The notes under the pieces were generated by a model that saw nothing but the letters and a program-made list of their open reading frames with translations, was not told the origin of the DNA and searched no databases. The position numbers and the translations under genes were made by a program. Shown piece after piece: positions 71 to 59,251 of a stretch of 64,000 nt of DNA. Numbering within the stretch: position 1 is the first letter of the stretch; every line of letters starts with the position of its first letter. This DNA is from a candidate division WOR-3 bacterium (GTDB lineage: Bacteria > Hydrothermota > 32-111), in contig JBDRZU010000001.1 of NCBI GenBank assembly GCA_039804105.1, positions 224,001-288,000 of the forward strand, given 5' to 3'.

Positions 71-98
71 TTGAAAATTATATTAATATGGTTATAAT
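71..98 (+). promoter_or_regulatory. sigma70-like promoter TTGAAA-N16-TATAAT for the SGNH gene (probably leaderless)
   Basis: -35 at 71-76, -10 at 93-98, ATG at 106. Confidence 0.6.
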
Positions 99-104
99 TG
101 TCAA
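77..104 (-). promoter_or_regulatory. sigma70-like promoter TTGACA-N16-TATAAT for the leftward gene
   Basis: perfect consensus hexamers on the minus strand (104-99 and 82-77). Confidence 0.7.
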
Positions 105-105
105 C

Positions 106-1278
106 ATGAAAAAATTTGTAAGAGTTTTATTGTATATATTTCTGATTTTGCTCATAGTTGAACTTGGATTAAAAATTTTTTTGATATTTTTTGAAAAGTA
201 TTCAAGTTGGGAACAAAGATCTAATCTTTTTATGGAGGATAGTTTACTTGGATGGAGAGGGGTACCTAATAGGAAAGTGATGGTAAAGACATTTGAGAGT
301 AAATTTTTAGTTGAAACAGATTCTTTAGGTTTCAGAAACACAATCTTCCCAAAGAAGAACAAAAAGGGCAAAAAGATATTGATGTATGGAGATTCATTCT
401 TGTGGGGCTACCATTTAAACAACGATGATTTGATATCGAGTATGTTATCAAAGGAGTTGAATGTTGAGGTAAAGAATTATGGTATGGTTGGATATGGAAC
501 AGATCAGGAGTACCTTTTATTCAAAGAGACAGTTGAGGATAATTCTGTTGTTGTGTTTTTGTTTTTCAACAACGATCTTGATGAACTTTTAAGAGATAAC
601 ATAGGAACGAAAGCATCAAAGCCAAAATTTATTTTAAAAAATGATTCAATCATTCTTTTAAACTATCCTGTTGATAGAAAAATTGTTGAACAAAAAGTTG
701 TTAATGAGAACAAATTTGAAAATTTTGGATTTTTGTTTAAGATCACAAGAACTTTAAAATTATCTCTGTACAAAACAAAAATTTATAGAGTGCTTTCATC
801 TTATTTACAGTACACAAGTTTTGGGAAGTTTTTATACGAAAAGAATCTCCTAGAGCCAGATCTTTTAAATCCCGATGAGGATGTTTTCAATTATATCAAC
901 TGGCAGGAATCAATAAAAATCTATGACCACCTGATGAAAAAAATAAAAAAAGAATGTGAATTGAGAGGATGTAAACTTCTTGTTTTTGTAATACCTTCAG
1001 AATGGACATATCAGCAAGATCTTATGAAAAAACTTGAAAAATTGGAACAACTTTATGGATATAATGATAGATATGAAGAGGTGATGGATAGTGTTCTGAA
1101 TGTTTTGAGAAGAGATAAGATAGATTATATTTATCCATTGGATGAGTTTCGTAAAATTGATACGAAAGTGAAATTGACAAAAAAGTTTGATAAACATTTT
1201 TCAAAAGAAGGCGCAAAATTCGTAAAAGATCTTTTGAAAACAAAAATTGAAGAGAGTTTAAAGGTTGACATATATTAA
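106..1278 (+). CDS. Membrane-anchored SGNH/GDSL hydrolase family protein (AlgX/AlgJ-like)
   Basis: N-terminal TM helix, GFRN, MYGDSF, GYGTDQ, NDL and D-x-H (DKH) motifs; start moved to MKKF at 106. Confidence 0.75.
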   Translation: MKKFVRVLLYIFLILLIVELGLKIFLIFFEKYSSWEQRSNLFMEDSLLGWRGVPNRKVMVKTFESKFLVETDSLGFRNTIFPKKNKKGKKILMYGDSFLWGYHLNNDDLISSMLSKELNVEVKNYGMVGYGTDQEYLLFKETVEDNSVVVFLFFNNDLDELLRDNIGTKASKPKFILKNDSIILLNYPVDRKIVEQKVVNENKFENFGFLFKITRTLKLSLYKTKIYRVLSSYLQYTSFGKFLYEKNLLEPDLLNPDEDVFNYINWQESIKIYDHLMKKIKKECELRGCKLLVFVIPSEWTYQQDLMKKLEKLEQLYGYNDRYEEVMDSVLNVLRRDKIDYIYPLDEFRKIDTKVKLTKKFDKHFSKEGAKFVKDLLKTKIEESLKVDIY

Positions 1279-1293
1279 GGTTAATGATATTAT
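1265..1293 (+). promoter_or_regulatory. sigma70-like promoter TTGACA-N17-TATTAT with extended -10 TG, buk-por operon
   Basis: -35 at 1265-1270, TG at 1285, -10 at 1288-1293. Confidence 0.6.
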
Positions 1294-1321
1294 AAAAATT
1301 TAAAAATAAAAAAGGAGTTAT

Positions 1322-2389
1322 ATGTATAAAATTTTAACGATCAATCCCGGTTCAACTTCTACAAAGATAGCGGTCTATGAGGATGACAAAGAAATTTTCA
1401 AAAAAACTATATCTCACCCTGAAAGTGAGATTTCAAAATACAAACACATAGTTGATCAGTATGAATTCAGAAGAGCAGCAATCGAGGATACATTAAAAGA
1501 GAACGGTTTTAACATAAAAGATTTTGATTGTTTTGTTGGAAGGGGAGGACTTGTAAAACCGATTCCTTCTGGAACCTACAAGGTAAATGAAAAAATGATA
1601 GAGGATTTGAAACATTCTCCCCTTGGAGAACATGCTTCAAATCTTGGTGGTATGATTGCATATGAGTTTGAAAAAGAGACTGGAAAACCCTCATACATAG
1701 TTGATCCTGTTGTTGTTGATGAGATGGATGATATTGCAAGGATAACTGGGTTCCCTGAGATCGAAAGGGTTTCAATCTTTCATGCTTTAAATCAAAAAGC
1801 GACAGCAAGAAGAGCAGCAAAAGATCTTGGAAAAAAGTATGAAGAAATAAATCTTATAGTCGTTCATCTTGGTGGTGGAATATCTATTGGTGCTCATAGA
1901 AATGGAAAGGTAATTGATGTGAACAATGCGCTCAACGGTGATGGTCCTTTTGCCCCAGAAAGGGCAGGTTCTGTTCCAGCATGGGGTCTGTATAAATTTA
2001 TTACTGAAACAAAAATAGAGGAAAAGGATTTCAAAAAACGTTTAGCTGGAAAAGCGGGTATAGTGGCACACCTTGGAACAAATGATATGAGAAAGGTTGA
2101 AGATGAAGTAAAAGCTGGAAACAAAGAGTATGAAAGAATCTATAAAGCGATGGCATACAATATAGGGAAATGGGTTGGAATGATGGCTGCAGTTTTACAT
2201 GGAAAGGTTGATGCGATAGCGATAACAGGTGGACTTGCCTATGACAAAATGTTTGTTGGGTGGATTGAAGATATGATATCATTTATCGCTACAATAAAGG
2301 TGTATCCGGGTGAAAACGAAATGCAGGCACTTGCTCTTGGTGGACTTAGAGTTTTAACGAAAGAGGAAAGTGCTAAAGAGTATAAATAA
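1322..2389 (+). CDS. buk: Butyrate (branched-chain carboxylate) kinase
   Basis: INPGSTSTK, GRGG, HASNLG, IFHALNQK, HLGGGIS, GPFAPER motifs; RBS AAGGAG. Confidence 0.95.
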   Translation: MYKILTINPGSTSTKIAVYEDDKEIFKKTISHPESEISKYKHIVDQYEFRRAAIEDTLKENGFNIKDFDCFVGRGGLVKPIPSGTYKVNEKMIEDLKHSPLGEHASNLGGMIAYEFEKETGKPSYIVDPVVVDEMDDIARITGFPEIERVSIFHALNQKATARRAAKDLGKKYEEINLIVVHLGGGISIGAHRNGKVIDVNNALNGDGPFAPERAGSVPAWGLYKFITETKIEEKDFKKRLAGKAGIVAHLGTNDMRKVEDEVKAGNKEYERIYKAMAYNIGKWVGMMAAVLHGKVDAIAITGGLAYDKMFVGWIEDMISFIATIKVYPGENEMQALALGGLRVLTKEESAKEYK

Positions 2390-2408
2390 AAGTTTAATAG
2401 GAGGAATA

Positions 2409-2960
2409 ATGCTTGAGATAAGAATTCATGGAAGGGGTGGACAGGGTGGTGTGATAGCATCTAAAATCCTTGCATATGCTTTTGCTATGGAAGGAAAATT
2501 TGTGCAGGCATTTCCTGAATTTGGAGTTGAAAGAAGAGGAGCCCCTGTAACTGCCTTTATAAGAGTTGCTGATCAAAGGATAAATATCCGTTCAAAAATT
2601 TATGAACCACAGCATCTTATAGTTCTTGAACCAACTCTGTTAAACGCTATAGATATCACGGAAGGTTTGAAAGAGGGTGGTTTTATCGTTATAAATACCA
2701 AGAAAAAACCCACCGAATTGAATATCAAAGCGAAAAATAGTAAAATTGCAACTGTTGACGCAACAGGTATTGCTTTAAAACATAGATTGGGTTCATCTGC
2801 AGCACCCATAGTAAATACAGCGATTTTGGGTGGTTTTGCAAAAGCAACAGGTTTTGTGAAAATAGAATCGATAGTTGATGCTATAAAAAAAGAGGTTCCA
2901 ATTAAACCGGATGAGAATGCTCAGGCAGCTATAGATGCATACAATTCTACAATAATGTAA
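2409..2960 (+). CDS. porG: 2-oxoacid:ferredoxin oxidoreductase gamma subunit
   Basis: EIRIHGRGGQG, FGVERRGAPV; AGGAGG RBS places start at 2409. Confidence 0.9.
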   Translation: MLEIRIHGRGGQGGVIASKILAYAFAMEGKFVQAFPEFGVERRGAPVTAFIRVADQRINIRSKIYEPQHLIVLEPTLLNAIDITEGLKEGGFIVINTKKKPTELNIKAKNSKIATVDATGIALKHRLGSSAAPIVNTAILGGFAKATGFVKIESIVDAIKKEVPIKPDENAQAAIDAYNSTIM

Positions 2961-2972
2961 TAAGGAGAATTT

Positions 2973-3269
2973 ATGAAAAGAGTTGGAAAAAAAATAATAT
3001 TTGAAAAAGAGAGTGATCTCCCTCCAAATGCTATGTCTCTCGGAACAACAGAGTTCAATGAAACTGGATCATGGAGAAACGAAAGACCGGTTGTTGACAA
3101 AGCAAAATGTATTGCTTGCGGTATCTGCTGGAAATATTGCCCTGATATGTCGATAAAAGAGGATTCTGAAGGGAAGGCAGATATTGATTATGTTTTTTGT
3201 AAAGGTTGCGGGATATGTGCAGCAGAATGCCCGGTAAAAGCAATAACAATGATTGAGGAGGAAAAATGA
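2973..3269 (+). CDS. porD: 2-oxoacid:ferredoxin oxidoreductase delta subunit (2x[4Fe-4S])
   Basis: TGSWR, two CxxCxxCxxxCP motifs including CKGCGICAAECP. Confidence 0.9.
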   Translation: MKRVGKKIIFEKESDLPPNAMSLGTTEFNETGSWRNERPVVDKAKCIACGICWKYCPDMSIKEDSEGKADIDYVFCKGCGICAAECPVKAITMIEEEK

Positions 3270-4426
3270 GTGAACAAAAAGTTATAATGGGTAATCATGC
3301 CCTTTCTTATGGGGCCGTAACATCGAGAGTTCAGGTTATTGCAGCATATCCAATAACTCCTCAAACTCAGGTTGTTGAACTGCTTTCTGAAATGTGTGCT
3401 GATGGGACTCTTGATGCTGAATTTATAAAAGTTGAATCTGAACATTCAGCAATGGCTGCCTGTATAGGGGCATCTGCAGCGGGAGCAAGAGCATTCACAG
3501 CAACGAGTGCACAGGGGCTTGCTTTGATGCATGAGATGCTTCATTGGGCTGTTGGTGCACGACTTCCAATAGTCATGGGAAACATCAACAGATCTATGGC
3601 ACCACCATGGACGATCTGGTCAGAACAGACAGATTCTTTATCACAAAGAGATACTGGCTGGCTCCAGATCTATGCTTCAAGTAACCAGGAAGTTTACGAT
3701 TCAGTTTTAATTGCATATAAAGTTGCTGAAAATGAAAAAGTTTCTTTGCCTGTGATGATAGTTCTTGATGCATTCTTTTTATCACATACTTCTGAAAATG
3801 TAACTCTTATTGATCAAAAAGATGCTGATAGATATCTGAAACCATACAATCCCAAATATAAACTCAACATAAAGGATCCACACACTTTTGGTGGATTAAC
3901 AACTCCTGACTGGTATATGGAACTTAGATATAAAATCCAAAAGGCGATGGAAGATTCTATTGAAGTTATCAAAGATGCACAGAAAGAATTTAAAGAGATG
4001 TTTGGAAGAGAGTATGGACTTGTTGAAACATACAAATGTGAAGATGCTGATACAATACTTGTTGCAGTGGCAACAGCAGCATCAACAGCAAAACAGGTTA
4101 TAGATGAACTCAGAGAAAAGGGAGAAAAGGTAGGACTTTTGAGAATAAGATTTTTCAGACCTTTCCCTTATGAAGATGTTAAAAAGTATCTTAAGAATGC
4201 CAAAAAAACGATTGTTCTTGATAGAAACCTTTCACCTGGTGCTGGTGGAATAGTTTTTCAAGAAGTTAAATCGGCACTTTATAATGAACCTGTTAAACCA
4301 AAAATTTATGGATATATAGCTGGTCTTGGCGGAAGAGATATTACTGTTGATACAATACATAAACTTTTTGAAGATGCCAAGAAAAGTGAACCTGCTGATA
4401 TCAAGTGGATGGAGGTGAAATTATGA
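3266..4426 (+). CDS. porA: 2-oxoacid:ferredoxin oxidoreductase alpha subunit
   Basis: AYPITPQT, VESEHSA, TATSAQGL, GLGGRD. Confidence 0.92.
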   Translation: MSEQKVIMGNHALSYGAVTSRVQVIAAYPITPQTQVVELLSEMCADGTLDAEFIKVESEHSAMAACIGASAAGARAFTATSAQGLALMHEMLHWAVGARLPIVMGNINRSMAPPWTIWSEQTDSLSQRDTGWLQIYASSNQEVYDSVLIAYKVAENEKVSLPVMIVLDAFFLSHTSENVTLIDQKDADRYLKPYNPKYKLNIKDPHTFGGLTTPDWYMELRYKIQKAMEDSIEVIKDAQKEFKEMFGREYGLVETYKCEDADTILVAVATAASTAKQVIDELREKGEKVGLLRIRFFRPFPYEDVKKYLKNAKKTIVLDRNLSPGAGGIVFQEVKSALYNEPVKPKIYGYIAGLGGRDITVDTIHKLFEDAKKSEPADIKWMEVKL

Positions 4427-5307
4427 AATATTCAATACCACAAAAAGAACTTTTAAATCCAGGGCATCTTGCATGTCAGGGATGTGGTGGTGCTTTGGCT
4501 TTAAGATTGGTTTTGAAAACACTTGGTGAAAACACGATTCTGACATTCCCTGCTTGTTGCTGGTCTGTGATAGATGGGCCATTTCCATATTCTTCAGTAA
4601 AGGTGCCTCTTTTCCACACAGCGTTTGAGACAGCAGCAATTACAGCTGCTGGAATAAAGGCAGGTGTAAAGAAAGTTGAAAAAGAGTATGTAAACGCAGT
4701 AGCATGGGCTGGTGATGGAGGAACATACGATATAGGAATCCAGGCATTATCAGGTGCTGCAGAAAGAAATGATGATATATTCTACTTTGTTTATGACAAT
4801 GAGGCGTATATGAACACCGGTGTTCAAAGATCCTCTGCAACCCCAAAAGGTGCATGGACAACAACAACTCCAACAACCTTTCCAAAAGCTGAAAACAAAA
4901 AAGATCTTGATGCAATTGTTGCTGCACACAATGTTCCATACCAAGCAACAGCATGTGTTTCATATCCTGAGGACTTAACTAAAAAACTTGAAAAAGCGGT
5001 TAAAATTAGAGGTTTTAAATTTTTCCATATACTTGCACCTTGTCCTCCTGGATGGAAAACAAATCCTGAAGATACTATAAAATTGGGCAGAATGGCTGTT
5101 GAAAGTGGAATTTTTCCACTCTATGAAATTGAAAACGGAGAAAAATATACTATAAATATGCCTTCTCCTAAAAAAGAACTAAAACCTGTGAACGAATATT
5201 TACTTAAACAGGGAAGGTTCAGACATCTAAAAGAAGATGATATCAAAGAGATACAGGAAAATGTAAATAGAAGATGGGAAAAACTGAAAAGATTAGCAGG
5301 AGTATAA
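4423..5307 (+). CDS. porB: 2-oxoacid:ferredoxin oxidoreductase beta (TPP-binding) subunit
   Basis: GHLACQGCG, GDGG..DIG, DNEAYMNTG; GGAGG RBS before ATG 4423. Confidence 0.92.
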   Translation: MKYSIPQKELLNPGHLACQGCGGALALRLVLKTLGENTILTFPACCWSVIDGPFPYSSVKVPLFHTAFETAAITAAGIKAGVKKVEKEYVNAVAWAGDGGTYDIGIQALSGAAERNDDIFYFVYDNEAYMNTGVQRSSATPKGAWTTTTPTTFPKAENKKDLDAIVAAHNVPYQATACVSYPEDLTKKLEKAVKIRGFKFFHILAPCPPGWKTNPEDTIKLGRMAVESGIFPLYEIENGEKYTINMPSPKKELKPVNEYLLKQGRFRHLKEDDIKEIQENVNRRWEKLKRLAGV

Positions 5308-5319
5308 TAATTTAAAATT

Positions 5320-5343
5320 AAGGGGGGTTTATAACCCCCTTTT
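5320..5343 (+). terminator. Intrinsic terminator after buk-por operon
   Basis: AAGGGGGGTT-TAT-AACCCCCTTTT hairpin. Confidence 0.75.
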
Positions 5344-5352
5344 ATCAAAATT

Positions 5353-6411
5353 ATGAAAGTTGGAATTTTAGGTTTATCAAAGTCAGGTAAAACAACAGTT
5401 TTTGAGGCTTTAACTGGTTTAAATTTAAGTTCTAATTTAAAAGATAAATTTCATATTTCTTCAGTAAAAGTTCCTGATAGAAGAATAGATTTCCTATCAA
5501 AAGTTTTTAATCCGAAAAAGACCACATATCCAACTATAGATTTTTTAGATTACAACAGGTTAGGAGAGAAGGAAGAAAAGTTCATCGATCAGGAATATTT
5601 TGGAAAACTAAAAGAATGTGATGGAATTTTAAAAGTAATTAGAAATTTTGAAAATGATATTTTCCCTCCCCATTTTGGAACTCTTGATCCCAAGAAGGAA
5701 CTTGTTGAACTTGATGATCATATAATATTGACAGATCTTGAAATCGTTGAAAAAAGGTTTGAAAAATTGAAAAACGCAAAATACAAACTTTCTACAAACG
5801 AAGTTTCAGAATTGAACTCTCTTGAAAAATTTAAAAACATTCTTTCTGAAGGGAAACCATTAAACAGATATGATTTTTCCCCTGACGAAGAAAAGTTGAT
5901 AAAAAACTATTCCTTGATATCTGCAAAAAAGGAGATTATTTTAATAAATGTTTCTTCAATGGATGAAAAAATAAATGGAGAACTTATAGAATATCTCGAA
6001 AAAGAAAAAAGAGATTATTTTATAGTTTCTGCCTTAAATGAAAAAGAATTAAACGAGTTTGATGAGAACACAAAAAAAGAGTTTGCATCGGAAATGAAGA
6101 TAAAAGAGTTTGCTATCGAAAAAGTCATATCTAAATTCTATAAAATTTTGAATCTCATTACTTTTCTTACTGTCGGAGAGGATGAGGTAAGGGGTTGGAC
6201 TATAAAGGATAAAACAAATGCTGTGAAAGCAGCGGGAAAGATTCATACAGATTTTGAAAAAGGTTTTATAAAAGCACAGGTTGTATCTTTTGATGATTTT
6301 CAAAAATATGGAAGTTTAAAAGAATGTGCAAAAAATGGTGTCCTGCGACTTGAAGGCAAAGATTACATCGTTAAAGATGGGGATATAATCGAATTCAAGT
6401 TCAATCTTTAA
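5353..6411 (+). CDS. ychF: YchF/Obg-family ATPase
   Basis: GLSKSGKTT P-loop, VKVPDRR, AAGKIHTDFEKGFIKA, GKDYIVKDGDII TGS domain. Confidence 0.88.
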   Translation: MKVGILGLSKSGKTTVFEALTGLNLSSNLKDKFHISSVKVPDRRIDFLSKVFNPKKTTYPTIDFLDYNRLGEKEEKFIDQEYFGKLKECDGILKVIRNFENDIFPPHFGTLDPKKELVELDDHIILTDLEIVEKRFEKLKNAKYKLSTNEVSELNSLEKFKNILSEGKPLNRYDFSPDEEKLIKNYSLISAKKEIILINVSSMDEKINGELIEYLEKEKRDYFIVSALNEKELNEFDENTKKEFASEMKIKEFAIEKVISKFYKILNLITFLTVGEDEVRGWTIKDKTNAVKAAGKIHTDFEKGFIKAQVVSFDDFQKYGSLKECAKNGVLRLEGKDYIVKDGDIIEFKFNL

Positions 6412-6416
6412 ATAAA

Positions 6417-7181
6417 ATGTCCTGTTTAGGTTTTATAATTCTTTTTATAATAATTTCTTTTATTTTTGGTCCCGCTGGATCGATCATTTTTGTAATAATT
6501 TTTACAATTTTATCTCTTTTAAACGGTCTTGATAACCTTAGTATTAGAAACAAAAACACAAATCAGAACTCCTTCTATGATCCCTTCATAGATATTTTGA
6601 GTATATTTTCTTACATATCTTTACTTGATGGGGTTGTTTCAAAAGATGAAGTTGATTATGTTAAAAGTTTTCTTTTGTCACTCTATCCGGACGATTTACA
6701 AAGGGTTCAAAATCTGATGAATGTTTACAAAAATTTTAATGAAAATCCAAAAACATTAAACATCGAGATATCGATTGAAAATATAAATGGGTCTGCAAGA
6801 TATGAAGAAAAATTATCAATTTTTTCATTGATCGTCGAACTCTCTTTGAAAAGTAAAAGAAGTGATACCATAAGGAGTACCCTTTTTCAAATCGGCAGCA
6901 AACTGAAACTAAACACCTATGACATCAACTCGATTCTCAATTATTACGATAGTCATTTTAAAAAAGGTATCGATCAAAGAAAAAGGTGGTATTCGATCCT
7001 TGGTGTTTCAGAGGACTCTTCCGATGAAGAGGTGAAGAGAGCATACAGGGAACTAGTCAAAAAAACACATCCCGATAAATTAAGAAATATGCCTGAGAAT
7101 GTGATAAAAAATGCTGAAAATAGATTTAAAGAAATAAACGAAGCTTACAACAATATTAAAATTGAGAGGGGACTCTCCTGA
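6417..7181 (+). CDS. DjlA-like co-chaperone (TM + TerB-like + C-terminal J domain)
   Basis: N-terminal TM; DGVVSKDE TerB-like motif; C-terminal J domain with HPD. Confidence 0.8.
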   Translation: MSCLGFIILFIIISFIFGPAGSIIFVIIFTILSLLNGLDNLSIRNKNTNQNSFYDPFIDILSIFSYISLLDGVVSKDEVDYVKSFLLSLYPDDLQRVQNLMNVYKNFNENPKTLNIEISIENINGSARYEEKLSIFSLIVELSLKSKRSDTIRSTLFQIGSKLKLNTYDINSILNYYDSHFKKGIDQRKRWYSILGVSEDSSDEEVKRAYRELVKKTHPDKLRNMPENVIKNAENRFKEINEAYNNIKIERGLS

Positions 7182-7196
7182 TGGGTCAAGATTATA

Positions 7197-7224
7197 TTGA
7201 CTTTTGTCTTATTTAAAATAAAAT
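7197..7224 (+). promoter_or_regulatory. sigma70-like promoter TTGACT-N16-TAAAAT (probably leaderless)
   Basis: -10 ends 6 nt before ATG 7231; no SD. Confidence 0.6.
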
Positions 7225-7230
7225 AATATT

Positions 7231-8456: not shown

Positions 8457-8464
8457 GAGGAAAT

Positions 8465-12515: not shown

Positions 12516-12864
12516 TTTTTCATATGAGGTTCCATTTGAAAAAGGTGATACACAAAAAATATATTATGATGAAACTTATGACAAAAGGTTAACCGATAAT
12601 TCTATAAATATAATACCGCTTCTTGGTTTAAGATTTTATCAGATATTCATTTCACCAGCACAGGGTGAAGTGTGTAATTTTACACCCTCATGTTCGAATT
12701 ATATGTTCCAATCGTTAAGAAAATATGGTTTATTTCTTGGATTTTTAAAAGGAGTTGATCGGTTGCAAAGATGTAATTTTTCCGTAAGAGAATATGTAAA
12801 CCTTTTCTATGATTCGATAGTTCTTATTCAAAGTAGAGGTTATAAAATTATAGATAAACCGTAA
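12469..12864 (+). CDS. YidD-like (membrane protein insertion efficiency factor family) protein with N-terminal signal-like extension
   Basis: FYQIFISP..CNFTPSCSNY...KYG...RLQRC. Confidence 0.75.
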   Translation: MNLFLSLIIASTLLTDFSYEVPFEKGDTQKIYYDETYDKRLTDNSINIIPLLGLRFYQIFISPAQGEVCNFTPSCSNYMFQSLRKYGLFLGFLKGVDRLQRCNFSVREYVNLFYDSIVLIQSRGYKIIDKP

Positions 12865-14849: not shown

Positions 14850-14877
14850 ATTTTACCTTTTTAAATCGATTAGTCAA
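14850..14877 (-). promoter_or_regulatory. sigma70-like promoter TTGACT-N16-TAAAAT
   Basis: upstream of ArsR-like gene. Confidence 0.6.
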
Positions 14878-14887: not shown

Positions 14888-14915
14888 TTGACAATCACTA
14901 TTATAAATATATATT
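14888..14915 (+). promoter_or_regulatory. sigma70-like promoter TTGACA-N16-TATATT
   Basis: upstream of M6 protease operon. Confidence 0.6.
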
Positions 14916-27866: not shown

Positions 27867-27894
27867 ATTATATATTTTTAAAATTTTTTTTCAA
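27867..27894 (-). promoter_or_regulatory. sigma70-like promoter TTGAAA-N16-TATAAT (pckA)
   Basis: minus-strand hexamers at 27894-27889 and 27872-27867. Confidence 0.6.
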
Positions 27895-27927: not shown

Positions 27928-27955
27928 TTGAAAAAAAGTGAATTTAATCTAAAAT
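27928..27955 (+). promoter_or_regulatory. sigma70-like promoter TTGAAA-N16-TAAAAT (fhs)
   Basis: hexamers at 27928 and 27950. Confidence 0.55.
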
Positions 27956-29610: not shown

Positions 29611-29638
29611 TTGACTTAGAAAAAATATTAAATAAAAT
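29611..29638 (+). promoter_or_regulatory. sigma70-like promoter TTGACT-N16-TAAAAT (mutase operon)
   Basis: hexamers at 29611 and 29633. Confidence 0.6.
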
Positions 29639-32552: not shown

Positions 32553-32984
32553 TTGAAAATCTCTATAGGAAGTGATCATAGAGGATTCAAAGTAAAAGAA
32601 GAGATAAAAAAGTGCACTGAGTTTGAGTTTATTGATAGAGGGACATTTTCTGAAGAGAGTGTCGATTATCCTGACTATGTGAAAGCGGTTGCACAGGATG
32701 TTCTTGAAAAGAGAGTTGATTTTGGAATTTTAATCTGTTATTCGGGAATCGGAATGTCAATTGCAGCAAACAAAATAAAGGGAATAAGGGCTGCCTATGT
32801 TATAGATCAAGAATTTGCATCACTTGCAAGAAAACATAATGATGCAAACATACTTGTACTTGGTGCAAAGGTTATTGAAGGCAAAGATCTTTGTAAAATA
32901 GTAAAAGTTTTTGCTGAAGAAAAGTTTGAAGGTGGAAGACACCAAAAAAGGTTGGATAAAATTTGCTCTTTTGAAAATAATTGA
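32553..32984 (+). CDS. rpiB: Ribose-5-phosphate isomerase B
   Basis: GSDHRG, SVDYPD, ANKIKGIRAA, HNDAN, FEGGRH. Confidence 0.93.
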   Translation: MKISIGSDHRGFKVKEEIKKCTEFEFIDRGTFSEESVDYPDYVKAVAQDVLEKRVDFGILICYSGIGMSIAANKIKGIRAAYVIDQEFASLARKHNDANILVLGAKVIEGKDLCKIVKVFAEEKFEGGRHQKRLDKICSFENN

Positions 32985-33008
32985 CATTAAAAAAAAAAGA
33001 ATTAAAAT
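32981..33008 (+). promoter_or_regulatory. sigma70-like promoter TTGACA-N16-TAAAAT (tRNA-Ala operon)
   Basis: 13 nt upstream of tRNA 5' end. Confidence 0.7.
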
Positions 33009-33021
33009 AAAAAATTAGTAT

Positions 33022-36969: not shown

Positions 36970-36997
36970 ATTATATTCTCTAAATTTCAAAGGTCAA
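36970..36997 (-). promoter_or_regulatory. sigma70-like promoter TTGACC-N16-TATAAT
   Basis: upstream of flavin reductase RBS. Confidence 0.6.
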
Positions 36998-37170: not shown

Positions 37171-37208
37171 TTACAAAAAAATGTCAAAAAGTCAAGCACC
37201 GTCCCCAA
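37171..37208 (+). repeat. Dispersed repeat copy 1 (TTACAAAAAAATGTCAAAAAGTCAAGCACCGTCCCCAA)
   Basis: identical 38 bp to 39680-39717. Confidence 0.95.
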
Positions 37209-37220: not shown

Positions 37221-37248
37221 TTGAAAATTTTCATTGAAATTATAAAAT
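37221..37248 (+). promoter_or_regulatory. sigma70-like promoter TTGAAA-N16-TAAAAT
   Basis: between repeat copy 1 and the GGAGG RBS of the LVIVD gene. Confidence 0.55.
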
Positions 37249-39679: not shown

Positions 39680-39717
39680 TTACAAAAAAATGTCAAAAAG
39701 TCAAGCACCGTCCCCAA
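39680..39717 (+). repeat. Dispersed repeat copy 2
   Basis: identical to copy 1. Confidence 0.95.
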
Positions 39718-39738
39718 TTTTGTTTTTTAATAAAAATC

Positions 39739-39766
39739 TTGAAAAGAAGGGATTTGTGGTTATAAT
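39739..39766 (+). promoter_or_regulatory. sigma70-like promoter TTGAAA-N16-TATAAT (polysaccharide operon)
   Basis: hexamers at 39739 and 39761. Confidence 0.65.
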
Positions 39767-51822: not shown

Positions 51823-52414
51823 AAACATTTATTTGTTTTTAGTTTTTCTTTATGCAAAATTAATATCTTTATTTTTATATGACAAAAAATATCTTAAAAG
51901 TAAATGGTTTAAAGGACAAAAATATTTTTTTGATGCACCAGGATGGGTATGGATAATTAGAGATTTTAATGGGCGTCTGTTTTTAAATGTAAACACTACT
52001 GTACCATTTCCCATATCTCCTTTTTGTAAAGTAATTGATTTTAACAACATAACTTTTCATCCTGATTCTTTAAACATTTTTCAATCTGTAGGATCATATT
52101 TCCAGGCATTTAAAGACGGAAAAATTATAATCGGAAAGAATACTTGGATTGCTCCAAATGTTGGAATAATCACAACAAATCATAATCCCTTTAACCCGTC
52201 AAAACATCAAAAAGGGGAAACGGTTATTATAGAAGATAATTGTTGGATTGGAATGAATTCAGTTATATTGCCTGGAGTTAAATTGGGTAAGAATACAGTA
52301 GTTGGTGCTGGATCAGTGGTAACAAAAAGTTTTCCTGAAGGTTATTGTGTTATTGCTGGTAACCCAGCAAAAAAAATTAAGGATTTACCTAAAGAAGGTT
52401 ATCAAGAACCTTAA
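51806..52414 (+). CDS. Hexapeptide-repeat (LbH) acyltransferase
   Basis: [35 protein letters not shown]; alternative start 51794. Confidence 0.88.
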
Positions 52415-52448
52415 AAATTTTTCTTGCATTCATCTTCATTCATCCTAC

Positions 52449-52476
52449 TTGAATCTTGTTTCAAAATGATTACCAT
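52449..52476 (+). promoter_or_regulatory. Weak sigma70-like promoter TTGAAT-N16-TACCAT
   Basis: upstream of oligopeptidase RBS. Confidence 0.4.
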
Positions 52477-52500
52477 ATATTGAATATGAAAGGAGTGGTG

Positions 52501-54606
52501 ATGAAAAAATTAAAAAGTGTAATTGCTTCAGTTGTTCTTTTGATTTTCGTTTTCAGTTTTTCAAAGCAACTTAAACCTTTAACTCCACCTGATGCTATAA
52601 AGGAACCACATTATTTGAATATACATGATACAACTCTTGTTGATGATTATTTTTATTTCAGGAATAGTGATGATAAAAGGGTTCTTGATTATATTGATCA
52701 AGAAAACGAATATACCGAAAAAATAATGTCAAAAACAAAAAATCTCCAGAAACAACTTTATAATGAAATTTTGAAAAAGGTAGATAAGGATGATGTTTCT
52801 GTTCCAGAAAGAAGAGATTCTTTCCTTTACTATTACAAGGATTTAAAAGGTAAGGACTATACAATATTTTGTAGAAAAAAAGATAAGGAAGGTGCAAAAG
52901 AGGAAATTATTATCGATGTTAACGAATATGCAAAAAATTATCCTTTCTTTGATTTGAATTTTGGAGAGATTTCAACAGATCACAGGATGCTGTCCTATTC
53001 TTTTGATACTTTGGGAAATGAGAATTACACTTTACGAATACTCGATTTGAAAACAAAACAAGATATTGCTCTACCAGTTATCGATAATATTACATCTTTT
53101 GCATTCAACAGATACAACGATGGATTTTTCTATACGATTCAAAATGATATTTCAAGATCTTACGCTTTAAAATATTACGATATGAGAACAGGGAAAGATA
53201 CCTTGCTTTATGAAGAACAAGATGAAAGATTTTCTGTCTATATCAACAAAACAAGGAATAAAGATTATATATTGGTGTCTGTTTCAAGTTCAACAACTTC
53301 TGAATATTACTATATTGAAAGTGGTGATAGAGAGTTAGTTTTGAAACCTCTTGTAAAAAGAGAAAATGGAGTTGAGTATTCGTTTGACCAATCAGGAAAA
53401 TATTTTTACTTTTTAACAAATAAGGATTGTGTTAATTTCGACTTAAAAAGATTCAGAATCGATTCAACAATTGAAAATTCTTATACGATTATAAAAGGTT
53501 CAGATACTCTCATGATAGAGGGTTTTGATGCATTTGAAAAATTTTTGTCTGTGTACGAAAGAGTTAATGGAAGGAAAAAATTAAAATTTTATTATCTTGA
53601 TAGTGGTGAATCAAAATATTTTAATTTTGGTGAAGAAAATTGCACTTTTTATCCGTTTTCAAATTCATCTTTTAGAAGGGATTCTTTGAGAGTGTCTTAT
53701 ATGTCGTTAAAAACACCTGCAACTGTTATTGACATTGATGTGTGGAATTTAAAAAGTGTAGTTAAAAAGGTTGATGAGATAAAAGGTTATAAAAAAGAAA
53801 ATTATGTAACTGAATATATCTATGCTCAAGCACCAGATGGAGAGATGATTCCAATATCACTTGTTTACAATAAAAAATTTAAGCCGGAAAATCGTCCTTT
53901 ACTTTTAACAGGTTATGGTGCTTACGGTGCTCCATCAAATCCCTACTTTTCAACATCAAGGTTATCTTTACTTGATAGGGGAGTGATATACGGTATCGCA
54001 CACATTAGGGGAGGTGGAGATAAAGGAAGAAAATGGTATCTTGATGGAAAAATGTTTAAAAAGATGAACACTTTTACTGATTTTATTTCTTGTGCAGAAT
54101 ATCTTATTCAAAAAGGTTATACTTCACAGGATAAACTTGCAATTGAAGGTGGAAGTGCTGGAGGACTTTTGATAGGATCTGTTTTAAACATGAAACCTCA
54201 TCTTTTTAAAGGAGCAATCCTCGGTGTCCCATTCGTTGACCTTATCAATACAATGCTTGACACAACTTTACCACTTACAGTAGGGGAGTTTGAAGAATGG
54301 GGTAATCCCCAGATAAAGGAGCAGTTCGATTATATGATAAAATACAGCCCTTATGATAATATTCAACCTAAAAAATATCCAATAATACTTGTGAAATCAT
54401 CTTTCTATGATACAAGGGTGATGTATTGGGAACCACTGAAATGGGTCGCAAAAATGAGAGACAATAAACTTGATAACAACCTTTTACTCTTAAAAATGAG
54501 AATGAATGCTGGACATGGTGGAAATTCAGGTAAATATAACTGGTATGAAGAGATAGCATTTGATAATGCATTTTTACTTTATTATGTTTGGGGTATCACT
54601 AAATAA
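52501..54606 (+). CDS. ptrB: Oligopeptidase B-like S9A peptidase with signal peptide
   Basis: GYGAYG, HIRGGG, GGSAGG, EEWGNP, DTRV, AGHGG; GGAG RBS before ATG 52501. Confidence 0.88.
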   Translation: MKKLKSVIASVVLLIFVFSFSKQLKPLTPPDAIKEPHYLNIHDTTLVDDYFYFRNSDDKRVLDYIDQENEYTEKIMSKTKNLQKQLYNEILKKVDKDDVSVPERRDSFLYYYKDLKGKDYTIFCRKKDKEGAKEEIIIDVNEYAKNYPFFDLNFGEISTDHRMLSYSFDTLGNENYTLRILDLKTKQDIALPVIDNITSFAFNRYNDGFFYTIQNDISRSYALKYYDMRTGKDTLLYEEQDERFSVYINKTRNKDYILVSVSSSTTSEYYYIESGDRELVLKPLVKRENGVEYSFDQSGKYFYFLTNKDCVNFDLKRFRIDSTIENSYTIIKGSDTLMIEGFDAFEKFLSVYERVNGRKKLKFYYLDSGESKYFNFGEENCTFYPFSNSSFRRDSLRVSYMSLKTPATVIDIDVWNLKSVVKKVDEIKGYKKENYVTEYIYAQAPDGEMIPISLVYNKKFKPENRPLLLTGYGAYGAPSNPYFSTSRLSLLDRGVIYGIAHIRGGGDKGRKWYLDGKMFKKMNTFTDFISCAEYLIQKGYTSQDKLAIEGGSAGGLLIGSVLNMKPHLFKGAILGVPFVDLINTMLDTTLPLTVGEFEEWGNPQIKEQFDYMIKYSPYDNIQPKKYPIILVKSSFYDTRVMYWEPLKWVAKMRDNKLDNNLLLLKMRMNAGHGGNSGKYNWYEEIAFDNAFLLYYVWGITK

Positions 54607-54607
54607 A

Positions 54608-55366
54608 CTATAAAGTTATCGTTTCTGAAGGTGAGTTGTAAGGAGAGATAACAAATTTTGTTTTCTCAGATTGAAATTGTGCGATTATTTCGTTGTAGAC
54701 AACTTCAGGGGAGTTGGTTCTTTTACTTAAATGATGTAAAAATATGTATTTTATATTTTGATTATAAAGTTTTTTAATAACTTTTAGTGTATCGTCGTTT
54801 GACAAGTGTCCATTTTCAGAAAGTATTCTTTGTTTTAAAGAGTCAGAATATTTTGATTTATGAAGTCCTTCTTTAGAATGGTTTGACTCAATCACAAGAA
54901 TCTTGATATCTTTTAAGAGAGGAATCAGATTATCATCAAATTGTCCCATATCTGAAAGGAATCCAATTTTTGAGTCATGGTAATTTATTATAAATCCAGT
55001 ATTTAACATATCGTGTGAAATTTCGAATGGGAAAAATTCAAAGTCGAACACAGAAAAACTTTTTCCAAACTCAAAAGGGATTTTAAAAAGGTGATTTTGA
55101 TAATGATTTTTATAATTGTTATTAAAATATAGATTTATTGACGGATTTTTTTTAAGAATAGATTCAAGACCTATGAAATGATCTCTATGAAAATGGGTTA
55201 TAACGATTGCTTTTAAATTTTCTATTGAAAGTGATTTGGATTCCAAAAGTTTTCTGGTTTTTCTATATGAAAGTCCAGCATCAATAAGTATAAGTTCTTC
55301 AGGATTTGAATATAGTACAAAAGAATTCCCATCAGAACAACTCGATAAAGAGAAAAAATTAACCAT
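54608..55366 (-). CDS. YycJ/WalJ-like metallo-beta-lactamase-fold hydrolase
   Basis: IDAG, THFHRDH, SHD, ESNH, GHLSN, HLS..TN. Confidence 0.82.
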   Translation of the reverse strand: MVNFFSLSSCSDGNSFVLYSNPEELILIDAGLSYRKTRKLLESKSLSIENLKAIVITHFHRDHFIGLESILKKNPSINLYFNNNYKNHYQNHLFKIPFEFGKSFSVFDFEFFPFEISHDMLNTGFIINYHDSKIGFLSDMGQFDDNLIPLLKDIKILVIESNHSKEGLHKSKYSDSLKQRILSENGHLSNDDTLKVIKKLYNQNIKYIFLHHLSKRTNSPEVVYNEIIAQFQSEKTKFVISPYNSPSETITL

Positions 55367-55465
55367 TTTTCCACATTTTGTTTAAATAATTTTTTATTAT
55401 TTTTCCGATAGTTATACTACTTTTCCACATATTTTACCCATCATTATCCACATTATTTATCCACA
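55367..55465 (+). promoter_or_regulatory. Cluster of four co-oriented DnaA boxes
   Basis: TTTTCCACA 55367-55375 and 55421-55429; TTATCCACA 55444-55452 and 55457-55465. Confidence 0.75.
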
Positions 55466-55480
55466 ACATGAGAACAAAAA

Positions 55481-55519
55481 TTGGGGACGGTGCTTGACTT
55501 TTTGACATTTTTTTTGTAA
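55481..55519 (-). repeat. Dispersed repeat copy 3 (inverted; A8 instead of A7)
   Basis: TTGGGGACGGTGCTTGACTTTTTGACATTTTTTTTGTAA on + strand. Confidence 0.95.
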
Positions 55520-55557
55520 ATACATTAAATTAAATAAGTTATAGACCATTCAATTTT

Positions 55558-56631
55558 TTATTTTTGGTAAATTTTTATCGATTTTTTCCGATTTTTAATA
55601 TTTTGCTCGATAACTTTCTTTGAATTACTGAAAATACTTTTATAAAAGTCGTAAGGATAAAACATTGTAGAATCATCAACAGGATCAGAAATTTCAAATG
55701 CCCCAATACCTTCATAATAATTTTCATTTATAAAACCTTTTACTTTACATGGACCGGTGAAAATTACTCCAGGGATAAAACATTCATCGTAGAGTGGCTC
55801 ATAAAAAAGATAGATAGAATCATCTTTACTTCTTATAAGAAAACCGTATTCGTAGATTTTACGCGATAAGAGTGATTTTCTGTATGTTATAGTGTCAAGA
55901 AAAGTGTTTTTATATATCATCGATTTTTTGTCTTTAAGATTATGATATTGTAAAAAGTTGAATTCTTGATTTTTAAAATGACCTGAAACAAGAAATTTAT
56001 CATCACCAAGAAAAATACCACTCCAGATCCATCTATTCTTAATATCAAGTTTCATATTTCCCCATTGATGATCAAACCATCCATACTTGTTTGATATTTT
56101 TGTTAGATCAATATTGACTTTATCTGTTTTGATAAAACCAGTTAATTTTTTTGAAATCAAAGAATAATATCCTGCTGTGTCTTTTATATGTCCCATAATA
56201 ATATAGCCGCTATCTCCATTTATGAGCATTTTATTGTCATAATCAAAATTTATCGAACATTGTAAATCGTTAAGATAAAAATTTATATCAAAACTAAGAT
56301 TTTCAAAATCATTATTGTCTTTGAAATTTTTCATACCAGAATAGATTGGGACATTAGTTTCATAATAATAGAAAGTATCCTTTAAAATATCTTTGATATA
56401 TATGTTTGAGAAATATGAATTAGCATCAAAATATTGAAAAACGATTACAAAATAATCATATTTTTTTTGCTGATTTTCAGTTAAAATATAGGTGTAATAC
56501 CAATTGATTTGACCTTTATGAATCTGGACATCTTTTGTTAAATCAAGAGTATATTTTTGATAATGATGCGCACAATTTATTAAAAGAAACATAAAAAAAA
56601 TGGAAAAGATTTTTTCTAATCTCAGTTTCAT
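55558..56631 (-). CDS. Lipoprotein with AttH/CrtC-like (lipocalin-like) domain
   Basis: lipobox LINC; NWYY, YYSL, GWFDHQWG, WIWSG, YEGIGAFE. Confidence 0.65.
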   Translation of the reverse strand: MKLRLEKIFSIFFMFLLINCAHHYQKYTLDLTKDVQIHKGQINWYYTYILTENQQKKYDYFVIVFQYFDANSYFSNIYIKDILKDTFYYYETNVPIYSGMKNFKDNNDFENLSFDINFYLNDLQCSINFDYDNKMLINGDSGYIIMGHIKDTAGYYSLISKKLTGFIKTDKVNIDLTKISNKYGWFDHQWGNMKLDIKNRWIWSGIFLGDDKFLVSGHFKNQEFNFLQYHNLKDKKSMIYKNTFLDTITYRKSLLSRKIYEYGFLIRSKDDSIYLFYEPLYDECFIPGVIFTGPCKVKGFINENYYEGIGAFEISDPVDDSTMFYPYDFYKSIFSNSKKVIEQNIKNRKKSIKIYQK

Positions 56632-56638
56632 AGATTTT

Positions 56639-56666
56639 ATATTATCAAAACAATTATTTATGTCAA
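56639..56666 (-). promoter_or_regulatory. sigma70-like promoter TTGACA-N16-TAATAT (probably leaderless)
   Basis: -10 ends 7 nt before ATG 56631. Confidence 0.55.
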
Positions 56667-56697
56667 TAACTATCAATAATGTTATAGCTTATCTTGA

Positions 56698-56730
56698 TTG
56701 GGGACGGTGCTTGACTTTTTGACATTTTTT
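56698..56730 (-). repeat. Dispersed repeat copy 4 (inverted, lacks terminal TTAC)
   Basis: TTGGGGACGGTGCTTGACTTTTTGACATTTTTT on + strand. Confidence 0.95.
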
Positions 56731-56738
56731 GATCTCTG

Positions 56739-56766
56739 TTGAAATATTTTGGAGTAAATATATAAT
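56739..56766 (+). promoter_or_regulatory. sigma70-like promoter TTGAAA-N16-TATAAT
   Basis: -10 ends 7 nt before ATG 56774 of the pseudogene. Confidence 0.55.
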
Positions 56767-56773
56767 TTCAAAA

Positions 56774-57755
56774 ATGGAAAAAGAGAAAATTTTGTTGATA
56801 TAGTAATATCCTTAGGAATTTTCTTGGTAGTTTTAGGATATACAGAAATCGACCCAAATCTAAAAAAATTTATATATTCGTTCCATATGCCTTTGTTTTT
56901 AATCATAATCATATAAAGATTAATAATTCCTTATTTTTTTTATTTTAGTTTTTTGACTTATCTATTTTGGATCTTTGTAACGGGGAGAGATGGAATCGGA
57001 CTTGCTATGAAATTGTATATCTAAAAACTATAATTGGAACTTTAATAGGCTTATCACATAACGATTATTTTGTTCACAATATATCAATTATGGTTTTATA
57101 TGTTTATTTTTGATTGAATTGCTTTATTTTTATATTTCCAAGATAAAAAATCAGGTTTTACTTTTAATTGTTTCAATTATTTTGAGTTTTATAGGTTATG
57201 TTGTCACAAAAAGATTACATTTAGTGTAAATATACGGATTTGCAAAGTTTTAATAACACAAGTGTTTTATTTTTTATGATTTATCATTAAGAAAAACAAC
57301 TTTATAGTTAATTTAAGGCGATTAACTATATTTAAAAATATAGTTTAACTTTAATTTTTTTTATTTTAAATCAATTTTTGACTAAATTTAACTGATTTGT
57401 CGGTTTTGTTGGAAATCTTTTTGGAAATAAACTTTCTAATATATTATTTAAATGGTATAATTGGGAAGTTTATGATCATTTTTATTTCGTTAACGATTGA
57501 AAAATTAATTTGTTATCAAGAAGTACACTTTATATTTTAGATTTCTATGAACAGGTTTTGACTTTGATATTTGGTGTTATTTTATTTTTGTTTAAAATGG
57601 AACCTGAAGTGTACAAGAGTATTTTGATAGTGAATATAATTTTTTCAATGGGAGTATGTCTTGGAATAGGAATAATGAACAATTTAATTTTATTGTGCAA
57701 ATTAAAAATAAATTTCAAAAATAGAACAACTAGCATAAGAGTTAAATCCGATTAA
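56774..57755 (+). pseudogene. Degraded acyltransferase-3 (OafA-like) O-acyltransferase
   Basis: ATG 56774 is out of frame with RENFVD..LGIFLVVLG..IYSFHMPLF; stop at 56914 then RLIIPYFF..LTYLFW; further broken hydrophobic fragments; 3' limit approximate. Confidence 0.78.
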
Positions 57756-57811
57756 AAGAGTGTTTTAGGTTGAGATGATTAAAGGTATTTTTGTTGAAAT
57801 ATACATACTCA

Positions 57812-57839
57812 ACTTTACATAATATATATTATCGGGAAT
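57812..57839 (-). other. dif: dif site (XerC/XerD chromosome dimer resolution)
   Basis: minus strand ATTCCCGATAA-TATATA-TTATGTAAAGT; 11-6-11 architecture; 23/28 match to B. subtilis dif as recalled (ACTTCCTAGAA TATATA TTATGTAAACT); intergenic. Confidence 0.85.
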
Positions 57840-57877
57840 TTTGTATATTATTTATTTTGCGAAGAAAATATATATTT

Positions 57878-58639
57878 TTATTTAATTATTCCCTGTACTT
57901 TCTTCTCATTATACTGTTGAGTTAAAGGATCAACAGCACCTTCAAGCATATTTTTGTAAACATATGCCTGTTGAACAAAACTTGAATTTGGGAATCTGTA
58001 TATTATTTCTTCGTAACAGTTAATTGCGTCTTCGATTTCATATTTCATTTCGTAAACTCTTCCCATTCCTAAATATGCTTCAGGTGTGTAAGCGTTTTCA
58101 GGTACATTTGTTGTGGCTTGCTTGTAGTACACGAGTGCTGAATCTATTTGGAGAGATCCCTCAAATGCCTTTGCTATACCTATGTAAGCAGCACATTTTA
58201 ATTCATCGAGTCCATATTTGTATTTGATAAACTGTTTGAAATTTTTAATCGCATCATTGTAGTATTTTTGAGAATTCTGTTGATCTATTGCTCCAAGATT
58301 CAAATTACACATTCCGATATAATAAGTCGCTTTTTTAGCAGAATTTGTTCCATAGTATGATTGTTTGATGTTTGTAAACAGTTCGAGTGCCTGTTTGAAA
58401 TCACCAGAAACAAATATATCTATAGCACCTGTCAATTCAAGGGATGAATTCCTTTCTTTCGAAACAAAACTTGATCTGATTGAAATCGCTATAATTATAA
58501 TAAGAATAAATGCTGAAAAACCGATAAAAAGATATCTCCAATTTAATCTTGACCAATTAATAAATTCACCAACAGCTTCAATAAACTTATCTTTTTTGAG
58601 TTCGGATTTTTTTACTTTAACCTTTTTAACTATTGTCAT
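57878..58639 (-). CDS. Single-pass membrane TPR protein (YfgM-like)
   Basis: KKSELKKDKF, TM helix, TPR units; AGGAG RBS. Confidence 0.75.
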   Translation of the reverse strand: MTIVKKVKVKKSELKKDKFIEAVGEFINWSRLNWRYLFIGFSAFILIIIIAISIRSSFVSKERNSSLELTGAIDIFVSGDFKQALELFTNIKQSYYGTNSAKKATYYIGMCNLNLGAIDQQNSQKYYNDAIKNFKQFIKYKYGLDELKCAAYIGIAKAFEGSLQIDSALVYYKQATTNVPENAYTPEAYLGMGRVYEMKYEIEDAINCYEEIIYRFPNSSFVQQAYVYKNMLEGAVDPLTQQYNEKKVQGIIK

Positions 58640-58660
58640 TTGCTACTCCTTTTTTGTAAG

Positions 58661-58733
58661 TGCCCCTGACAAGAATCGAACTTGTGGCCCTCTGTTTAGG
58701 AAACAGATGCTCTATCCACTGAGCTACAGGGGC
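58661..58733 (-). tRNA. tRNA-Arg(CCT), CCA not encoded
   Basis: GCCCCTG/CAGGGGC acceptor; TAGCTCAGTGGATAGAGC D arm; TCTGT-TTCCTAA-ACAGA; GTTCGATTC. Confidence 0.96.
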
Positions 58734-58738
58734 ATTTT

Positions 58739-59251
58739 TTAAAAGTGAATTATACTTGATATTTGCCAATTTTCAAGATTTTTTCTACCGTTTAAAAAAT
58801 CGAGTTCGATCAAAAATGATATTCCTGATACATTTCCACCTGATTTTTCAATAAGTTTTGTTGCTGCTTTCATCGTGCCACCTGTTGCAAGTAGATCATC
58901 AACAAGAAGTATATTCTCCCCTTTTGATACAGCATCTGTATGCATCTCTATTGTCGCTGTTCCATATTCAAGAGTATAAGTTTCCTCAAAAGTTTTATAA
59001 GGTAATTTTCCTTTTTTTCTTATAGGTATAAATCCTTTGTTATATTTGTTTGCTATAGCGATTCCAAAGATAAAGCCTCTTGATTCAATTCCAGCTATTT
59101 TATCAATTTTTGAAAAATCAAAAGGTTCACTCATTTTGTCAACAGCATATTTAAAGGCATAAGGATCAAGTATTACAGGTGTAACATCTTTAAAGATTAT
59201 TCCTTTTACTGGAAAATCAGGTATGTCTCTTATAAAACTTTTAAGTTCCAT
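58739..59251 (-). CDS. apt: Adenine phosphoribosyltransferase
   Basis: IPDFPVKGIIFKD, IESRGF, RKKGKLP, LEYG, VDDLLATGGT; GGAGG RBS gives start 59251. Confidence 0.96.
   Translation of the reverse strand: MELKSFIRDIPDFPVKGIIFKDVTPVILDPYAFKYAVDKMSEPFDFSKIDKIAGIESRGFIFGIAIANKYNKGFIPIRKKGKLPYKTFEETYTLEYGTATIEMHTDAVSKGENILLVDDLLATGGTMKAATKLIEKSGGNVSGISFLIELDFLNGRKNLENWQISSIIHF
58749..58776 (-). promoter_or_regulatory. sigma70-like promoter TTGAAA-N16-TATAAT for tRNA-Arg, inside the apt 3' end
   Basis: -10 ends 15 nt upstream of tRNA 5' end. Confidence 0.6.

Follow-up and report, generated by a model that had tools for sequence, protein, structure and literature searches.

Predicted housekeeping promoters with a 16-bp spacer in a WOR-3 bacterium and in other uncultured genomes

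Introduction

How far apart do the -35 and -10 boxes of a bacterial housekeeping promoter have to stand? An optimum of 17 bp counts as a fixed property of transcription in bacteria and is restated domain-wide in two surveys of 2025-2026. In the accessible part of one study, which used an E. coli-trained model, 17 bp was predominant across 49 species (PMC12641261), and the accessible part of the ProFinder study (10.64898/2026.09.23.753901) reports that 17 bp is enriched in 60 of the 67 phyla, with Caldisericota weakest, and falls below baseline in no phylum. The word 'WOR-3' is absent from the ProFinder main text as far as that was accessible, and WOR-3 could be among its seven unenriched phyla.

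Here we examine a 64-kb stretch of 29% GC from a candidate division WOR-3 bacterium (contig JBDRZU010000001.1, positions 224,001 to 288,000), hereafter the window, in which a first-pass annotation had picked by eye 16 candidate promoters with exactly 16 bp between the boxes and one with 17 bp, and had proposed a lineage-level shift in sigma2-sigma4 geometry or in DNA twist. We find that 16 bp is the usual spacer at operon starts of the window and that 17 bp occurs at chance level, in which the window differs from the group 1 sigma70 (RpoD/SigA) promoter. The 16-bp sites are a variant of the sigma70 promoter, not a new system, and they extend beyond the window; very probably they are working promoters that follow a lineage-level 16-bp norm.

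Results

All 16 sites with a 16-bp spacer were recovered as TTGA(A/C)N-N16-TAnnnT directly 5' of a gene or tRNA (Table 1), both tRNA promoters and one perfect consensus among them, and the buk promoter was confirmed as the only one with 17 bp. These sites are motif matches, that is, predicted promoters. They share their hexamers, the order of these and their place before operons and tRNAs with the TTGACA-N17-TATAAT promoter of group 1 sigma70, and the spacer falls within the accepted 15-19 bp range at all 17 sites. The -35 boxes carry 4-6 of 6 consensus matches at all 16 sites, TTGA being invariant through the search pattern, and the -10 boxes read TATAAT in seven cases, TAAAAT in six and otherwise in three; A stands at -10 position 4 in 14 of 16 and at position 5 in 15 of 16, neither of which the pattern demands. 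The sites precede metabolic, envelope and hypothetical genes, beyond stable-RNA and translation genes.

The caveat that sites had been picked by eye in AT-rich DNA did not hold up once regions were chosen by rule. Across 19 rule-chosen operon-first regions (hand-set gene starts, 120 nt each), 0, 15, 1 and 4 sites had spacers of 15, 16, 17 and 18 bp, respectively, while dinucleotide shuffles predicted 0.3-0.4 sites per spacer and none of 500 reached 15. The histogram of the window, set against shuffles, is peaked at 16 bp, neither peaked at 17 bp nor flat. By comparison, 42 non-first regions gave one site at 16 bp and one at 17 bp. With genes called automatically, 20 regions of 150 nt yielded 13 sites at 16 bp versus 1 at 17 bp, the reverse of the group 1 sigma70 rule that 17 bp is the commonest spacer. 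Matrices trained on 58 sites with a 17-bp spacer in control genomes still placed 14 sites at 16 bp and 1 at 17 bp in the 20 window regions, where about one was expected by chance, and disclosed no hidden class of weak 17-bp promoters in the remaining 6 regions. When the search was anchored on the -10 box alone (n=36), TTG stood 12 times at the 16-bp position and once at the 17-bp position, and 4 of the 5 top-ranked sites of a promoter scanner run over 25-41 kb have 16 bp. A loose pattern counted over the whole window was near-flat (36 at 16 bp versus 15-32 at other spacings), and the 16-bp signal is therefore specific to operon starts. Side peaks at 21 and 18 came mostly from second hexamers off the same -35 box, and sliding either box by one base reduced the matches to 1-3 of 6.

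The same pipeline was applied to controls comprising 500 kb and 249 regions from six low-GC replicons (26-36% GC) of Fusobacterium, Acetoanaerobium, Bacillus, Ilyobacter, Deferribacter and Clostridium acetobutylicum, three of which are true plasmids that may differ from chromosomes. These gave 6 sites at 16 bp versus 26 at 17 bp on a background of 6-13, and the window differed from them with a Fisher p of 3e-6. Single replicons were sparse: the Bacillus control alone had 0 versus 1, and E. coli (15 kb) and Bacillus (50 kb) had 0 and 1 matches at 16/17 bp, too few to be used singly.

For this genome our scope is the 64-kb window; other metagenome-assembled genomes (MAGs) were reached through a dispersed repeat shared with the window, by a genome scan that returned at least 57 loci, and the repeat was masked before counting. 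None of the at least 57 repeat-bearing loci listed matched the window. L013 and L049 were excluded as overlapping L012 and L048; duplicates were removed from L009, and L030 and L057 were left unpooled because of their small size. Stahlbacteria and TA06 were counted with WOR-3, to which we take them to belong. Four Stahlbacteria MAGs gave 14 sites at 16 bp versus 6 at 17 bp in 35 regions (Fisher p 4e-4 against the controls). The suggested lineage-level shift is thus supported: other WOR-3-type genomes show the bias as well, and controls of matched composition lack it. Two Aminicenantes had 1 versus 4 (33 regions), and Omnitrophota 0 versus 2.

Beyond what had been claimed, WOR-3-like genomes differ in the degree of the bias, and a second, apparently unrelated lineage has the same shift. 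The MAG STB_17 (231 kb, 48% GC) gave 30 sites at 16 bp versus 2 at 17 bp in 125 regions with the repeat masked, so that the peak in other genomes does not stem from the dispersed repeat. The TypA of STB_17 had no named relative above 60% identity; its flagellin matched the best-scoring solved flagellins, one of them named FlaB1, with about 400 bits versus about 220 for the next group, and it falls in clusters dominated by Spirochaetota. Rather than to WOR-3, STB_17 probably belongs to a basal spirochaete-like lineage. Among Spirochaetota replicons, examined for a possible 16-bp rule of the whole phylum, counts at 16 versus 17 bp were 3 versus 2 in a Brachyspira plasmid, 0 versus 1 in Leptospira p74 and 0 versus 0 in Borrelia cp26 (0 versus 1 with a 200-nt window). 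In the accessible part of a study of Spirochaeta africana, whose boxes (TTGACN / TANNNT) are those of the window, a 16-bp P-gre and a 17-bp P-rrna both work with sigma70, and sigma region 4 can leave the -35 box (10.64898/2026.02.09.704077); there 17 bp is consensual and a 16-bp mode goes unreported, in contrast to the count in STB_17 with its spirochaete-type flagellin.

An artefact of hand-picking in AT-rich DNA would suit a window of 29% GC and a near-flat loose count, but the 48% GC genome STB_17 has the same peak and the 26-36% GC controls do not. We regard it as barely credible; at the level of the motif it is refuted by the rule-based regions, the shuffles, the non-first regions, the controls, STB_17 and the conservation of orthologues. 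A probable transporter gene has kept both boxes and the 16 bp in 3 of 3 genomes, with a diverged spacer and a start 6-8 nt past the -10 box, and the ddl promoter has kept both boxes and the 16 bp in 2 of 2 Stahlbacteria, with changed spacer letters. These putative orthologous promoters are the best sequence evidence for selection on spacing. Within the window, the ATG of an intact open reading frame (ORF) lies 6-7 nt past the -10 box at 3 of 16 sites (starts 106, 7231 and 56631), as it would in a leaderless transcript, so that the -10 register is set independently of the -35 box; a fourth such ATG opens a decayed gene.

Called start codons often lie 5-8 nt past the -10 box, both in the window and in MAGs of WOR-3-like type (L012, L021, L034, L046, L056), which suggests that leaderless translation may be common in the genome of the window and in these MAGs.

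Table 1. Predicted promoters and copies of the dispersed repeat in the window
Feature	Coordinates	Strand	Context
TTGAAA-N16-TATAAT	71..98	+	ATG of 390-aa SGNH/GDSL-like ORF 7 nt past -10, leaderless geometry
TTGACA-N16-TATAAT (perfect consensus)	77..104	-	precedes gene running out of the window
TTGACA-N17-TATTAT (buk promoter)	1265..1293	+	sole 17-bp site; TGn precedes -10
TTGACT-N16-TAAAAT	7197..7224	+	ATG 6 nt past -10; 164-aa ORF heading HAD/fbp/scpA run
TTGACT-N16-TAAAAT	14850..14877	-	5' of ArsR-like gene
TTGACA-N16-TATATT	14888..14915	+	5' of M6-like protease / C25 peptidase run
TTGAAA-N16-TATAAT	27867..27894	-	5' of pckA
TTGAAA-N16-TAAAAT	27928..27955	+	5' of formate-tetrahydrofolate ligase
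TTGACT-N16-TAAAAT	29611..29638	+	5' of methylmalonyl-CoA mutase
TTGACA-N16-TAAAAT	32981..33008	+	5' of tRNA-Ala(GGC) at 33021; AT-rich past -10
TTGACC-N16-TATAAT	36970..36997	-	5' of flavin-reductase-like gene
TTGAAA-N16-TAAAAT	37221..37248	+	5' of LVIVD-repeat / Por-tail protein
TTGAAA-N16-TATAAT	39739..39766	+	5' of polysaccharide biosynthesis cluster
TTGAAT-N16-TACCAT	52449..52476	+	5' of oligopeptidase B; weakest site, 8/12 matches
TTGACA-N16-TAATAT	56639..56666	-	ATG (56631) of 357-aa lipocalin-like ORF 7 nt past -10
TTGAAA-N16-TATAAT	56739..56766	+	ATG 7 nt past -10 opens decayed, multiply broken gene
TTGAAA-N16-TATAAT	58749..58776	-	5' of tRNA-Arg(CCT) at 58733; within 3' end of apt
33-bp perfect dispersed repeat, four copies	37176-37208, 39685-39718, 55481-55514, 56697-56730	+, +, -, -	each just 5' of gene

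Discussion

A genome with 17 bp at chance level and 16 bp at most operons amounts to a natural experiment on whether holoenzyme geometry or DNA twist sets the spacing. Literature searches over titles and abstract openings, with most subscription papers outside their coverage, returned no lineage with a 16-bp housekeeping mode. The two mechanisms named in the first-pass annotation, sigma2-sigma4 geometry and DNA twist, stay the leading two. We infer from sequence both the use of the sites as promoters and the holoenzyme as the cause; that these are ordinary housekeeping promoters read by a holoenzyme whose geometry is altered to prefer 16 bp is an explanation that, in our judgement, has an even chance of being right.

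Under such an altered geometry, a primary sigma70-family holoenzyme would read the usual -35 (TTGAC/AA) and -10 (TA(T/A)AAT) contacts. Since the boxes are standard, standard sigma contacts are the simplest assumption, and the change would be a geometric one of a single base pair. The preferred distance between the boxes would be 16 instead of 17 bp, about 3.4 A shorter and with about 34 degrees less rotation, through a heritable shift of sigma domain 4 on the beta flap or the beta-prime zinc-binding region relative to domains 2-3. Selection across many promoters would then have maintained 16 bp, and at least two lineages, the WOR-3-type genomes and the unplaced spirochaete-like one, would have acquired or retained the shift. 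In a broader form, which we advance tentatively and hold to be somewhat doubtful, the 17-bp ruler would not be universal: a WOR-3 clade and a separate basal spirochaete-like group would have been reset to 16 bp through the holoenzyme, and relatives part of the way there (14:6, 11:9) would record a genome-wide transition.

Several points weigh against this explanation. The Stahlbacteria counts taken alone are not significant (binomial 16 versus 17 bp, p 0.12), 66 regions of six further records, unplaced or labelled TA06, hold 11 sites versus 9, and the bias across WOR-3-like genomes is graded (13:1, 14:6, 11:9); into the unplaced set we pooled L056, titled as Woesearchaeota, because of a gene 64-66% identical to theirs. 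The Acetoanaerobium control alone had 3 at 16 bp versus 2 at 17 bp, and the addA promoter is present in only one of two orthologous regions. A scan of 58 window proteins saw no sigma70, RNA polymerase or topoisomerase gene (rpoD, rpoB and rpoC included), and no group 1 sigma factor was found in the window or in the at least 57 repeat-bearing loci of other MAGs. In the accessible parts of two further studies, a supercoiling model with an unchanged polymerase has its optimum at 16 bp when superhelical density is about 0 (PMC9303308), and in an E. coli library promoters with 16 bp equal those with 17 bp in mean strength (PMC8695583). The latter result implies that a normal enzyme tolerates 16 bp, and therefore a small shift in the holoenzyme or in DNA winding could move the optimum.

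DNA winding is what changes in the main alternative, in which an ordinary holoenzyme works on a relaxed chromosome: at near-zero superhelical density, owing to weak or absent gyrase or to reverse gyrase, the angle that the polymerase needs would be met at 16 bp. In the accessible part of the supercoiling model, one spacer base corresponds to about 0.06 of superhelical density and about two-fold output, and its 543-degree angle puts the 16-bp optimum at -0.001 (PMC9303308). Such a physiological cause would account for both the recurrence in an unrelated lineage and the graded bias. Three Aquificota plasmids were mixed, 7 at 16 bp versus 6 at 17 bp, unlike the controls, but the Aquifex plasmid, from an organism described as having no working gyrase (PMC8216471, accessible part), gave 3 versus 3 and was not 16-dominated, in a tiny sample confounded by high temperature. 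The window proteins have no hyperthermophile signature either; their amino-acid indices (IVYWREL 0.405, CvP 5.3) are like those of mesophile controls, and hyperthermophily, tried as a candidate, fails in that these indices do not set the window apart. Helical periodicity, a proxy for supercoiling, was uninformative: none of the sets, the controls among them, peaked near 10-11 bp. We consider a relaxed chromosome unlikely, if worth pursuing.

In E. coli, the stringent promoters of rrn P1 and tRNA genes have a 16-bp spacer and a GC-rich discriminator, and the 16-bp pairing of rRNA and tRNA promoters avoids over-stable complexes. The window shares with them near-consensus boxes and 16 bp, including at tRNA genes; it differs in that nearly all operons are involved and that the DNA past the -10 box is AT-rich, at both tRNA promoters and at most other sites. 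One could thus propose a kinetic detuning, in which the polymerase still prefers 17 bp and near-consensus boxes are paired with 16 bp against over-stable complexes, a habit spread to all operons. The boxes are indeed unusually near consensus, with a strong pair in 14 of 20 window regions, and the single 17-bp site, at buk, looks functional. However, no weaker 17-bp class emerged in the window or in STB_17 when the 16-bp regions were removed, 18 bp, the symmetrical detuning, occurs in only 2 of 20 regions, the AT-rich DNA past the -10 box extends even to both tRNA genes, and low-GC controls with near-consensus boxes use 17 bp. Detuning appears improbable on these counts.

We assign a similarly low probability to a change of register or factor, in which sigma region 4 would read V-TTGA-M one base earlier together with 17 bp, or an accessory factor or a second group 1/2 sigma would set the spacing. 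At none of the 16 sites does T directly precede TTGA (G 7, A 5, C 4), and one position further upstream T stands in 13 of 16; information therefore reaches upstream of the -35 box. Yet the TTGA(C/A) core is the standard -35 letter for letter, a slid -35 box matches only 1-2 of 6, and ordinary promoters, too, are reported to have an enriched cytosine where the UP region ends on its 3' side (PMC12641261, accessible part).

Other promoter classes fit less well. The Bacteroidota -33/-7 promoter, TTTG-N19-21-TANNTTTG in the accessible parts of PMC4459075 and PMC6847099, comes to mind because the window has secretion genes like those of the Fibrobacteres-Chlorobi-Bacteroidetes (FCB) group (PorV/PorQ family, Por tail, C25), the -7 box has the same -12/-11/-7 register, and N19, counted between hexamers, corresponds to 16 bp; the class also features a short primary sigma without region 1.1. 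The window nevertheless keeps canonical boxes without TAHHTTTG: for the -7 box TANNTTTG, one TTG/TAHHTTTG pair was found across the 20 window regions, at spacing 20. An FCB-wide 16-bp rule by way of the Bacteroidota -33 box (accessible parts of PMC6847099, PMC4459075, PMC2483708 and 10.1101/172254) was tried and is not supported by our counts. In 175 kb of Bacteroides and Prevotella (n=61), TTG stood 3 times at the 16-equivalent and 6 times at the 17-equivalent position; counts at 16 versus 17 bp were 2 versus 3 in Rhodothermus phage RM378 and 0 versus 1 in a Rhodothermus plasmid, and Prosthecochloris and Gemmatirosa had no matches at 16 or 17 bp. Promoters of extracytoplasmic function (ECF) sigma factors, with an AAC-type -35 and a CGT/GTT-type -10 (10.1101/172254, accessible part), are not matched, every site being TTGA.. 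/ TA...T.

Aligned with E. coli, Fusobacterium and Acetoanaerobium, the sigma70 factors of Bacteroides (L059:19938-20798) and Gemmatirosa (L070:20812-23019, a called ORF of 735 aa) share a shortening by 1-2 residues immediately ahead of region 4.2, a possible lead only, from an alignment that holds no WOR-3 sigma. Altered geometry and relaxed DNA differ in what they predict, namely sigma/flap differences or gyrase status. If the former is true, comparing the sigma and core of these lineages with those of 17-bp relatives would pinpoint which residues gauge the distance between the boxes. In 16-bp lineages the correct answer is marked down by promoter predictors that were trained on E. coli, and genes of such lineages may express differently in standard hosts.

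Additional observations

The window holds housekeeping, fermentation and envelope genes, genes like those of the type IX secretion system (T9SS) and 2 tRNAs. An NCBI protein under the label 'candidate division WOR-3 bacterium' shares 100% identity with its phosphomannomutase. Its YchF and phosphomannomutase each fall in a small clade of about 18 clusters, beyond which identity drops sharply; judged by these matches, the source lineage is an isolated, uncultured, WOR-3-labelled group. In YchF (5353-6411) the C-terminal Pfam domain was matched and the GTPase model was not, as in most of its small clade, and its G-domain is possibly divergent.

At 71-104 two 16-bp promoters overlap near-symmetrically, the -35 box of each adjoining the -10 box of the other, with 10 bp between the -10 boxes.

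Near-identical copies of the 33-bp dispersed repeat, which bears two outward TTGAC boxes, occur in the MAGs behind the at least 57 loci, which span several phyla. In L012, L043 and L048 an inverted pair of the repeat flanks a REP-associated tyrosine transposase (NF047646, below cut-off), so that the repeat resembles the terminus of a RAYT-type element. L056:1-6858 (30% GC) combines its Woesearchaeota title with the repeat, a bacterial-type 16-bp promoter and the gene 64-66% identical to two bacterial MAGs, and this contig is probably misbinned.

Downstream of an intact 16-bp promoter, the decayed gene at 56774-57755 (+) is broken into many short fragments; a Pfam search with its last piece found no match, and one fragment resembles membrane acyltransferases. 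The operon start at a metallo-beta-lactamase-fold gene had no TTGA promoter match. Just 5' of this gene, at 55367-55465, four 9-mers that resemble DnaA boxes lie in one orientation within 99 bp, out of 6 in the whole window; the cluster is a possible DnaA-regulated site or origin-related element.

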